Source: a virus (Duplodnaviria; Heunggongvirae; Uroviricota; Caudoviricetes). Taken from it: a DNA stretch of 4,921 nt. This document shows, one piece after another, positions 664 through 4,921 of the stretch. Below the pieces are notes generated by a model. The model had not been told where the DNA came from and ran no database searches. It saw nothing but the letters and a program-made list of their open reading frames with translations. The stretch is from positions 1 through 4,921 of the IMG/VR virus record IMGVR_UViG_3300029471_000044; one strand, given 5' to 3'. The translations under genes and the position numbers were made by a program. How positions within the stretch are numbered: position 1 is the stretch's first letter; each line of letters starts with the position of its first letter.

Positions 664-1142
664 TTAAATTGCGTGAATAGCGTGACGAGGGAAGGGGAGA
701 GTTACTGGCTCCTCGTCTGGGTAGATAGGTTTGTTATGTTTGTGCCACTCGACATGACATGACTTGCAGAGCCACATCACATCGGTTGGTTTGCTGTAGT
801 CGCAGTGGTGCGCCTGTGGTTTACATTCTGATCCGCAGCACTCACATTGTGGTGGTCGGATTAGCTTACCGTCGCGCAAAAAATTACCCACGATGATGTG
901 GGCTTTTCTTTTCCATGGGTTGCTCTGAATGAACCGCTTTTTGGCTGCGTTACACCGTTCTCTGCCGCGTTCCGATGATTGATATTCTCTCCTTGCTGAT
1001 ACTCGATGTGGCAATCCCGCGCGCTCTTTGTCATATTCAGCCAGGCAAGCCCGGCAAGCGGCAGTTAATCCATCTCTGGATGCTCTTCTGATTTGAAAGT
1101 CCCTTTCTTCCTNNNNNNNNNNNNNNNNNNNCAGATTTTCAT
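664..1142 (-). CDS. HNH endonuclease, interrupted by a 19-N run (1113-1131); start and frame across the gap uncertain
   Basis: ORF-track product 664-1014 carries an HNH-like core (CECCGSECKPQAHHCDYSKPTDVMWLCKSCHVEWHKH: His-His, then LC-x2-CH, flanked by Cys pairs). The same frame stays open with no stop from 1014 up to the N-run (...EERDFQIRRASRDGLTAACRACLAEYDKERAG-). A strong start context, AGGAGC-N5-ATG (ATG 1142-1140), sits just beyond the N-run but is out of frame if the gap is taken as exactly 19 nt. Stop TAA 664-666. Confidence 0.65.
1113..1131. other. Run of 19 N (unknown or masked sequence) inside the HNH gene
   Basis: Directly visible in the sequence. Confidence 1.
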
Positions 1143-2865: not shown

Positions 2866-2948
2866 GGGTAACTCCTTATATTTGATTGCATAACGAAAAT
2901 GCCTCTCGTGAAGCATTATTGGTATGCGGTAAAGCCGCGCTCAGGCGG

Positions 2949-3197
2949 CTACTCTATTTCTTCTTCGAATGATTTTATTAGTCGGTCAATAACATCATCC
3001 GTTTCAATATCATTTCCGTCTGATTGCTTTAATACATCTATTGATTCTGCAGCGGTAAATTCCATCGCTGTGAGAAACTCGACAATTGCACACTCAACGA
3101 CATATCGTTCTTCATCTGTACGACATGAGATAAAAGAGCATTTAATTGCTGTTATTACTTTTTGTTTAAGCTCTGCAGGGTAATCAGTTTTTATCAT
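2949..3197 (-). CDS. Hypothetical strongly acidic small protein (82 aa)
   Basis: ATG 3197-3195 with SD GGAG 6 nt upstream; stop TAG 2949-2951. 20 Asp+Glu against 9 Lys+Arg, with an acidic C-terminus ETDDVIDRLIKSFEEEIE. First gene after the terminator at 3211-3239. Confidence 0.7.
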   Translation of the reverse strand: MIKTDYPAELKQKVITAIKCSFISCRTDEERYVVECAIVEFLTAMEFTAAESIDVLKQSDGNDIETDDVIDRLIKSFEEEIE

Positions 3198-3210
3198 CGT
3201 TTACTCCGTC

Positions 3211-3239
3211 AAAAAAAACTGCCCTCACATTGGAGGGCA
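3211..3239 (-). terminator. Rho-independent terminator on the minus strand
   Basis: Minus-strand RNA: UGCCCUC-CAAUGU-GAGGGCA (7-bp stem 3220-3226/3233-3239, 6-nt loop) followed by G and eight U (complement of the A8 run 3211-3218). Lies between the 156-aa gene and the acidic 82-aa gene. Confidence 0.75.
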
Positions 3240-3300
3240 AAGAAGATTTCCAATAATCAGAACAAGTCGGCTCCTGTTTAGTTACGAGCGACATTGCTCC

Positions 3301-3328
3301 GTGTATTCACTCGTTGGAATGAATACAC
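3301..3328. repeat. Perfect 9-bp inverted repeat GTGTATTCA-N10-TGAATACAC
   Basis: 3301-3309 is the exact reverse complement of 3320-3328; located 15 nt downstream (in transcript sense) of the stop of the 156-aa gene and about 60 nt upstream of the terminator hairpin. Confidence 0.6.
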
Positions 3329-3342
3329 AGTGCTTATTTGTA

Positions 3343-3813
3343 CTAATAAAATACCCAATTTTCTGTTTCTTGGTTGTGTCCAAAGTTATATTCAATATCT
3401 GGTGTTGATGTATCAATATTCTTCATCCCATCAACAAGAGTTGATACAACAGCCAAATCTTGTTTGATTCTCATCAAATGGTATTTCTTCCGGCGCAATA
3501 AACTTTCAATGGCAAGTTTCTTCGTCGGGAACGCAAAAGATCTTTCTGCATTTTTTGCTACTTTCTTAATTGCATATCTATTTCTCCTTTGTTTCCATTC
3601 CTGTAACCACTGATTTGGTGCTGGTTTAAAATTAACAATCCAATGCGCAGGAACCAACCATGCATAATGCTCTGTCTGATGAAAAGCTATATATTGAAGT
3701 GCGAATATTTTTATCCCATCTTCTTCAACTGTCGCCTGGAATCTCCAGAAAACAGGCATTCCCTCATGTTCAGTTTCTGATTCAGGAAAAGGTACGCTCC
3801 ATGATTTTGTCAT
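3343..3813 (-). CDS. Hypothetical protein (156 aa), function unknown
   Basis: Long minus-strand ORF; ATG 3813-3811 lies 3 nt after the stop (TAA 3817-3819) of the upstream gene, suggesting translational coupling. Stop TAA 3343-3345. No motif I can recognise. Confidence 0.75.
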   Translation of the reverse strand: MTKSWSVPFPESETEHEGMPVFWRFQATVEEDGIKIFALQYIAFHQTEHYAWLVPAHWIVNFKPAPNQWLQEWKQRRNRYAIKKVAKNAERSFAFPTKKLAIESLLRRKKYHLMRIKQDLAVVSTLVDGMKNIDTSTPDIEYNFGHNQETENWVFY

Positions 3814-3816
3814 ATA

Positions 3817-4098
3817 TTACTCATCTCCAAGGGCTTTGCTGATTGCTGACTGTGCTTTCGATACTTCATCAGGATAATGGTCATTCCAGTTTTGCTTGTA
3901 TGCCTTGTTTAGCATCGCTTGCAGTGCTTCAAGCAAATCAGGAGCTGCTGCTATCAGTAGCGCATCCTCCCTTTCATTTCTTGTTGCTGCTTCAATGTAT
4001 GTGTCACCAATCGTCACACCATGGAACGTAGTCATCATCTCGTTGACGTTTCTAACCGTGTACTTCCATTTACCAGGCGTACCCTTAAACTCTTTCAT
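3817..4098 (-). CDS. Hypothetical protein (93 aa) with conserved-looking LLIAAAPDLLEAL segment
   Basis: ATG 4098-4096 preceded by AGAGGTGG 3-5 nt upstream; the ORF track begins 2 codons earlier at GTG 4104. Stop TAA 3817-3819. Confidence 0.7.
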   Translation of the reverse strand: MKEFKGTPGKWKYTVRNVNEMMTTFHGVTIGDTYIEAATRNEREDALLIAAAPDLLEALQAMLNKAYKQNWNDHYPDEVSKAQSAISKALGDE

Positions 4099-4137
4099 AT
4101 CCACCTCTGTTGTTTATGCCAAAAATAAAGGCCACCA

Positions 4138-4741: not shown

Positions 4742-4919
4742 ATGACCATTTTTTATTTGGATTTCGTTGGTGAGCGTGATTAACAACTCTGTGCATTACA
4801 TCCTCATATTTTTCATCTTCAATTTTTTCGACATCGCGAGGAAATGGTGTTGCTAATGCTTTGTCAACTTTATCCATTGGGTCTTCATTAATCTTATATT
4901 CAGGACCGTCATCTATAGC
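4740..4919 (-). CDS. Hypothetical acidic protein, C-terminal 59 codons only (5' end beyond the right edge)
   Basis: Frame open from the window edge to TAG 4740-4742 (...AIDDGPEYKINEDPMDKVDKALATPFPRDVEKIEDEKYEDVMHRVVNHAHQRNPNKKWS); same strand as the rest of the operon, with a terminator straight after its stop. Not in the ORF track because no start codon is inside the window. Confidence 0.45.
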   Translation of the reverse strand, partial: AIDDGPEYKINEDPMDKVDKALATPFPRDVEKIEDEKYEDVMHRVVNHAHQRNPNKKWS

Positions 4920-4921
4920 AT

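Follow-up and report, generated by a model that had tools for sequence, protein, structure and literature searches.

The hairpin encoded at positions 3239-3211 on the minus strand of the phage DNA analyzed here (a stretch of 4,921 nucleotides, hereafter called the window) is in all likelihood a prophage copy of the bacteriophage lambda terminator tL2a, which would act both as a terminator of the pL operon and as the 3' end of a small RNA (sRNA) of the PreS/LPR1 type. A preliminary description of this DNA had interpreted the hairpin as a terminator. That reading stands, as the hairpin, a homologue of lambda tL2a, has the form of a canonical intrinsic terminator in the early-left operon of a lambdoid phage, but the description missed the role in an sRNA. 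Judged from its sequence, the hairpin is a real transcription terminator, although one that has already been described. By analogy with lambda, forming the 3' end and the Hfq-binding module of PreS is a better documented role for this sequence than operon termination.

The RNA transcribed from 3239-3211 reads UGCCCUC-CAAUGU-GAGGGCA-G-UUUUUUUU. Two arms (3239-3233 and 3226-3220) enclose a 6-nt loop (CAAUGU, 3232-3227) and are followed by G3219 and eight U residues (3218-3211). RNAfold predicted a stem of 7 bp, five of them G-C, running from U3239-A3220 to C3233-G3226. The preliminary description had reported a GC-rich 7-bp hairpin followed by G and U8, located 13 nt before the ATG (3197) of an 82-amino-acid (aa) gene, and both its coordinates and its wording proved exact. 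It had also proposed a folding calculation of minus-strand positions 3245-3205 (CUUCUUUGCCCUCCAAUGUGAGGGCAGUUUUUUUUGACGGA). This 41-mer indeed folds into the hairpin at -12.9 kcal/mol (z = -2.5), a value equaled by 2 of 200 shuffled sequences, and the hairpin by itself is predicted at -12.5 kcal/mol. A pattern scan detected the same site as an 8-pair stem, including one G-U pair, with T8 immediately after it. Thus, the element combines a GC-rich stem-loop on the transcribed strand with a U-tract 0 to 1 nt past the stem, as is characteristic of intrinsic terminators. The 13-nt spacer that separates it from the 82-aa gene (3210-3198, minus strand) contains the Shine-Dalgarno sequence of that gene (GGAG, 3207-3204), and homology to other phages breaks in this spacer. 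The scan revealed no sigma-70-like promoter in the minus-strand interval separating the terminator from the genes that follow it, in line with what had been claimed from the sequence.

In lambda, tL2a belongs to the tL2 cluster of terminators, which is located ahead of cIII and the recombination genes, whose expression depends on N. By BLAST, window positions 3333-3213 aligned with lambda 33925-34045, in the ral-ea10 intergenic region, with 97.5% identity. In phage O276, which is a hybrid of lambda and HK022, the aligned hairpin bears the annotation "Transcription terminator tL2a"; in HK97, HK106, and HK75 it is annotated as a putative terminator. Lambda tL2a itself presumably maps near 33,930 (Luk and Szybalski 1983; Lambda II tables), in agreement with the alignment of the window. 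According to a preprint, LPR1/PreS is encoded between ea10 and ral, and its GC-rich stem and poly-U stretch correspond to tL2a (Silverman et al., bioRxiv 10.1101/2024.10.31.621285). We took the +1 position of the sRNA from primer P810 of that preprint; the cloned lambda LPR1 begins with GAGCAATG. On this basis, lambda PreS extends from 34011 to 33925 (87 nt) and the window copy, with its 5' end assigned by homology to the cloned LPR1, from 3299 to 3211 on the minus strand (89 nt). The first 69 nt of the window copy are identical to lambda 34011-33943, with no mismatch. The remaining differences are a G-to-A change in the loop, a change of the stem base from CGA to CAG, and the extension of U6 to U8, because of which the window terminator is predicted to be slightly stronger than that of lambda. 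Both RNAs share a common predicted fold. They also share the seed, the hairpin with its U-tail, and the place in the pL operon upstream of cIII. The element of the window thus has the early-left location, from the ral side to the cIII side, with different immediate neighbors: ral and ea10 in lambda, a 156-aa gene upstream and the acidic 82-aa gene downstream in the window. Moreover, lambda is an N-type phage, whereas the phage of the window is probably of the put type. A permissive search of the whole window against Rfam 15 returned no relevant family.

The preprint reports that lambda PreS is detected as species of ~88 and ~68 nt from 10 min after induction and is absent in lysogens. It describes PreS as an Hfq-dependent, Hfq-binding sRNA with its 3' end at the tL2a hairpin, which raises dnaN translation ~4-fold and lowers alaS ~2-fold; compensatory mutations confirmed both effects. 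Deletion of the seed resulted in less DNA replication and less spontaneous phage release (bioRxiv 10.1101/2024.10.31.621285). Lytic expression, Hfq binding, and regulation of dnaN and alaS have been shown for lambda only, by this preprint, and it is by analogy that we infer that the window copy is expressed and acts like lambda PreS.

The sequence expected to carry this activity is intact in the window. The seed region (3264-3238, minus strand) is complementary to the E. coli dnaN leader in two blocks: positions 3264-3254 form an 11-nt perfect match to nucleotides -27 to -17 of the E. coli K-12 dnaN mRNA, and positions 3249-3238 form a 12-nt perfect match to nucleotides -47 to -36. The two matches are colinear, with a predicted local duplex energy of -32.3 kcal/mol. 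Of 2000 shuffled versions of the sRNA body, 2 had a 12-nt exact match to dnaN. We scored the pairing by exact match and local duplex, as full-length RNAduplex yielded meaningless all-over pairing. The sites that were mutated in lambda, M1 for dnaN and M2 for alaS, were defined from preprint primers P839 and P888, respectively. Both M1 (CUG; CTG in TTGTTCTGATT) and M2 (GAA in TTGGAAATC) are unchanged in the window, and the M1 triplet falls within the 11-nt dnaN-complementary block.

BLAST located a block of ~120 nt including the hairpin in 327 phage records (95 to 100% identity) and in 2237 of the 5426 complete E. coli genomes. Across these phage and E. coli matches the arms of the hairpin are kept, and the loop and tail vary. 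In 133 loci retrieved with an exact 33-mer, identity jumps from background to at least 95% at position 3333 and continues at about 100% through the terminator stem, with variation in the loop, stem base, and U-tract. The conserved unit is the non-coding block and not the flanking genes. The gene upstream of it is of the 156-aa L0079/gp45 type in 933W, H-19B, and HK97, ral in lambda and E. coli CPww7, and ECs_1180 in Sakai Sp5; IS903 takes this position in O276/HK022, and two extra open reading frames (ORFs) do so in Bas106. On the downstream side, ea10/ssb, a P22 gp17-like gene, cIII, or a 322-aa ORF is found, and the 82-aa gene in the window. The 145-nt gap between the 156-aa and 82-aa ORFs folds at -49.2 kcal/mol (z = -5.4) into three parts: a long hairpin with perfect pairing, an imperfect second stem, and the terminator. 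Among 27 distinct variants we detected no compensatory pairs in the sRNA/terminator. This covariation analysis was uninformative because the sequences are nearly invariant, and the structure therefore rests on thermodynamics and on the lambda experiments.

On the minus strand, the genes are arranged in the order nun, ral, a 95-aa ORF, the 156-aa ORF, the element, the 82-aa ORF, cIII, kil, and the recombination genes, which Pfam identified as a Rad52-like/SSB/exonuclease module. ral was identified by Pfam PF11058 (E = 1.6e-48). The 156-aa ORF (3343-3813), upstream of the element, belongs to the 933W L0079/HK97 gp45 family, which is very widespread beside N in Stx phages. The acidic 82-aa ORF (2949-3197) is the first gene past the terminator and is called as a gene in E. 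coli CPww7 and in a closely related metagenome scaffold (L154). No Pfam family was assigned to these two ORFs, to the 95-aa ORF (3820-4104), or to a 116-aa ORF (667-1014), all on the minus strand; for a 93-aa form of the 95-aa ORF, a precomputed record lists PF27050 (Phage_P22_Y8K6). Two masked runs of 19 N residues are present in the window (1113-1131 and 2444-2462). The second falls within small ORFs between kil and the Rad52-like gene, where L154 has real sequence.

Further terminator-like hairpins lie on the same strand. The pattern scan detected one with a U-run directly past the nun stop codon (4741-4724). A 9-bp hairpin covers the ral stop codon (4149-4128) and is also present after ral in lambda. 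A third hairpin with a U-run, ~30 nt upstream of cIII (2917-2898), is homologous to lambda ~33.49 kb, probably the tL2b/cIII-leader region. In all, two hairpins upstream of cIII (2898-2950, minus strand) are homologous to lambda 33,46x-33,54x. The one at 2917-2898 has a U-A pair where lambda and HK97 have C-G, a compensatory change. Several terminator-like hairpins on one strand are the layout expected of an operon controlled by antitermination.

These additional hairpins, at least three in number, together with the anatomy of the terminator, would also suit a simpler reading, in which the hairpin is only an attenuator-type terminator of the pL operon and the short RNA ending at it is a functionless by-product in this phage. 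We consider this unlikely. Approximately 85 nt upstream of the stem are non-coding and yet invariant in lambda, 933W, H-19B, HK97, and Sf6-like phages, although the flanks change, and a bare terminator would not need such conservation. In addition, the window retains the seeds validated in lambda, and its complementarity with dnaN goes far beyond chance.

Very unlikely, in our judgment, is that the hairpin terminates an independently transcribed moron, namely the 156-aa L0079-like gene, which would have a promoter of its own that is active in the lysogen. That gene and the terminator do co-occur in 933W, H-19B, HK97, and the window, and homology breaks just past the hairpin, as it does at moron boundaries. 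However, we rejected this reading because the element occurs without the 156-aa gene in lambda, E. coli CPww7, Sakai Sp5, and O276/HK022; in Bas106 the two are separated by two ORFs. Moreover, no minus-strand site resembling a promoter turned up ahead of the 156-aa gene in the scan, and lambda PreS was undetected in lysogens according to the preprint (bioRxiv 10.1101/2024.10.31.621285). Finally, a chance GC-rich inverted repeat with a T-run and no role, to which the modest z of the 41-mer and the ~4.4 terminator-like patterns per window in shuffled sequences might point, is effectively excluded, mainly because hundreds of phages and over 2000 E. coli genomes retain the stem arms and differ only in the loop and tail, and also by the phage records that annotate a terminator and the RNA 3' end reported there in lambda by the same preprint.

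We also compared the element with other prophage sRNAs. DicF, from the dicB operon of Qin, is a prophage sRNA of the same kind that ends at an intrinsic terminator. StxS, from the PR' transcript of Stx phages, and lambda 6S RNA, which ends at tR', are likewise short, Hfq-associated RNAs of phage operons whose 3' end is an intrinsic terminator subject to read-through by antiterminated polymerase. StxS, 6S, and DicF nevertheless have no sequence similarity to PreS, derive from different operons (late or dicB), and have different targets. The EHEC/EPEC prophage sRNAs AgvB, AsxR, EcOnc03, HnrS, and PasA-D were discarded as candidates, as they are encoded in late Q/PR', lysis, and tail regions and have different sequences.

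If the hairpin is tL2a, the genes beyond it would need read-through, and the preliminary description had proposed an N- or put-type mechanism for this. Our analysis favors put, and the antiterminator itself is located outside the window. The window contains the 3' part of nun (4743-4921, minus strand), whose C-terminal 59 residues are 100% identical to HK022 Nun. Positions 4743-4919 encode Nun residues 51-109 and are 100% identical to PDB 6ALG chain N ("Transcription termination factor nun"); the fragment is 98% identical to mEp235 gp38. As the C-terminal end of HK022 Nun is encoded here, the prophage probably excludes lambda. The window stops short of the immunity region, and putL, an N gene, and a nut site are outside or absent from it. 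The metagenome scaffold L154, which matches all 4921 nt of the window at 99.2% identity, extends further. We found this scaffold through the 93-aa protein, the form of the 95-aa ORF that starts at an ATG; the 95-aa form with a GTG start matched no encoding contig. Upstream, L154 carries a cI-like repressor gene and nun, separated by a gap of 349 nt in which no gene is called. This cI-nun stretch is 96.7% identical to the cI-oL/pL-putL-nun region of HK022, and the part spanning pL and putL matches the annotated O276 segment at 100% identity.

Relatives of the window phage display two layouts around nun: putL-nun in HK022, O276, HK75, and L154, and N-nun in mEp235 and mEpX1. The latter two match the nun end of the window but have boxA and an N-like gene preceding nun; in mEp235, the region from nun to N matched no relevant Rfam 15 family. 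The tL2a/PreS element occurs downstream of both types of system. HK022 and O276, with put RNA, carry it, and so do lambda, 933W, H-19B, and HK97 downstream of N and nutL. The logic is the same in both cases, in that intrinsic terminators of the pL operon are overridden by a modified polymerase. What connects the window to HK022 is the 3' end of its nun in the window and putL in L154, outside the window; the window differs from lambda in having no N or nut, nor is there an N gene between cI and nun in L154. It is reasonable to suppose that the downstream genes would need read-through of the hairpin. The nun fragment, 100% identical to that of HK022, and the pL-putL arrangement of L154, without an N gene, make put RNA rather than N probably the device responsible.

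A feature directly 5' of the PreS +1 position deserves separate mention. Positions 3330-3299 (minus strand) form a conserved 14-bp hairpin (CUGUGUAUUCAUUC/CAAC/GAGUGAAUACACGG), with a predicted energy of -18.8 kcal/mol and z = -6.5. It is at least 95% conserved in the 133 loci, on par with the sRNA, and falls outside the cloned LPR1. In six IMG/VR loci (L041, L057, L082, L097, L103, and L149), the same position is occupied by an 11-bp hairpin with an unrelated stem sequence (CUAUAGCAGAUU/UACG/AGUCUGCUAUG; -13 kcal/mol, z = -3.5), and homology resumes at GAGCAATG. That the hairpin was swapped and yet a hairpin was kept points to selection for structure. The 5' arm of this hairpin, intact in the window, has been lost to IS903 in HK022/O276; the upstream hairpin is therefore not essential for phage viability. 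The scan revealed no minus-strand promoter belonging to the sRNA or to the 82-aa gene. By eye, we saw only poor -10 candidates, too near +1, in both the common and the variant hairpins. As no promoter is apparent, the 5' end at 3299 probably arises by processing. The available preprint text gives no account of sRNA biogenesis, nor of how the 3' end of the sRNA forms at a terminator that antiterminated polymerase ignores (bioRxiv 10.1101/2024.10.31.621285), and a search of the available literature for RNase III or other processing sites in the pL operon yielded nothing. We tentatively propose that the upstream hairpin is a required, undescribed part of PreS, maybe a processing or biogenesis determinant that sets the 5' end of the sRNA on the pL transcript, though we regard this as doubtful. 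Perhaps it additionally protects the 3' end of the upstream mRNA. If the proposal is true, PreS would be made by processing independently of the type of antitermination, N or put, and processing would account for an sRNA whose 3' end lies at a terminator passed by modified polymerase.

Our model for the element is as follows. After derepression, transcripts from pL would cross nun, ral, and the 156-aa gene. putL RNA, made just after pL and the most likely modifier, would render the polymerase resistant to termination, and the resistant polymerase would pass tL2a, allowing expression of the 82-aa gene, cIII, kil, and the Rad52-like/SSB/exonuclease module. In RNA that ends at tL2a, the hairpin and U-tail would confer 3' stability and offer a binding site for the proximal face of Hfq. 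The 5' end of the sRNA (3299) would come from processing of the pL transcript beside the conserved upstream hairpin. The single-stranded seed (3264-3238) would then pair with the host dnaN leader, opening the ribosome-binding site and raising the amount of beta-clamp, and the sRNA would also repress alaS. Together, dnaN activation and alaS repression would favor phage DNA replication during lytic growth.

The PreS/tL2a block (3198-3342 and flanks; L001-L009 and L161) is a recurrent mosaic junction, with at least five different genes on each side. Its similarity to other phages sets in sharply at 3333 and stops within the U-tract. The early-left region of relatives is a site of clustered insertions: in phage CurroJimenez_Bas106, PreS is separated from the 156-aa gene by two ORFs (L003, 7908-8395), IS903 abuts PreS in HK022/O276 (L161, 4420-5343, O276), and an IS3 element is located downstream of kil in E. 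coli CPww7 (L004, 7175-8403). The exact PreS 33-mer was also found in assemblies of Pseudoxanthomonas, Shewanella, Pseudomonas, Bradyrhizobium, Neobacillus, Kitasatospora, and others (L011-L031). These non-enterobacterial matches look like lambda DNA contamination or spike-in because most of the contigs have low coverage and several measure ~48.4 to 48.5 kb, and we left them out of the estimate of breadth.

The Sp5 prophage of E. coli O157 Sakai carries a copy of the element (L005, 8559-8680; NC_002695.2, 1254558-1254679). ECs1180, the ORF directly 5' of this copy, ranked 22nd among coding sequences in Hfq CRAC (Tree et al. 2014, Table S1A), a rank that may reflect binding of Hfq to the PreS homologue of the Stx2 phage. 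We did not find the Sp5 copy among the named EcOnc sRNAs that we located. Short ORFs for hypothetical proteins overlie the sRNA in the window (3184-3294, minus strand), in Bas106 (Bas106_0039; L003, 7770-7868), and in VT2-Sakai (orf19; AP000363, 8469-8624), and these are probably mis-annotations of the non-coding element.

The element is thus a known one, lambda tL2a and PreS, and part of the value of recognizing it lies in annotation. Most Stx phages carry the block, as do ~40% of complete E. coli genomes; Rfam 15 has no entry for it, and it is usually unannotated and sometimes overlaid by spurious short ORFs. The hairpin 5' of the PreS +1 position adds one small undescribed detail. Recognizing the block labels a phage sRNA aimed at the host beta-clamp gene. 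It further indicates that one sRNA/terminator module serves different antitermination systems, N in lambda and 933W and probably put RNA in the phage of the window.
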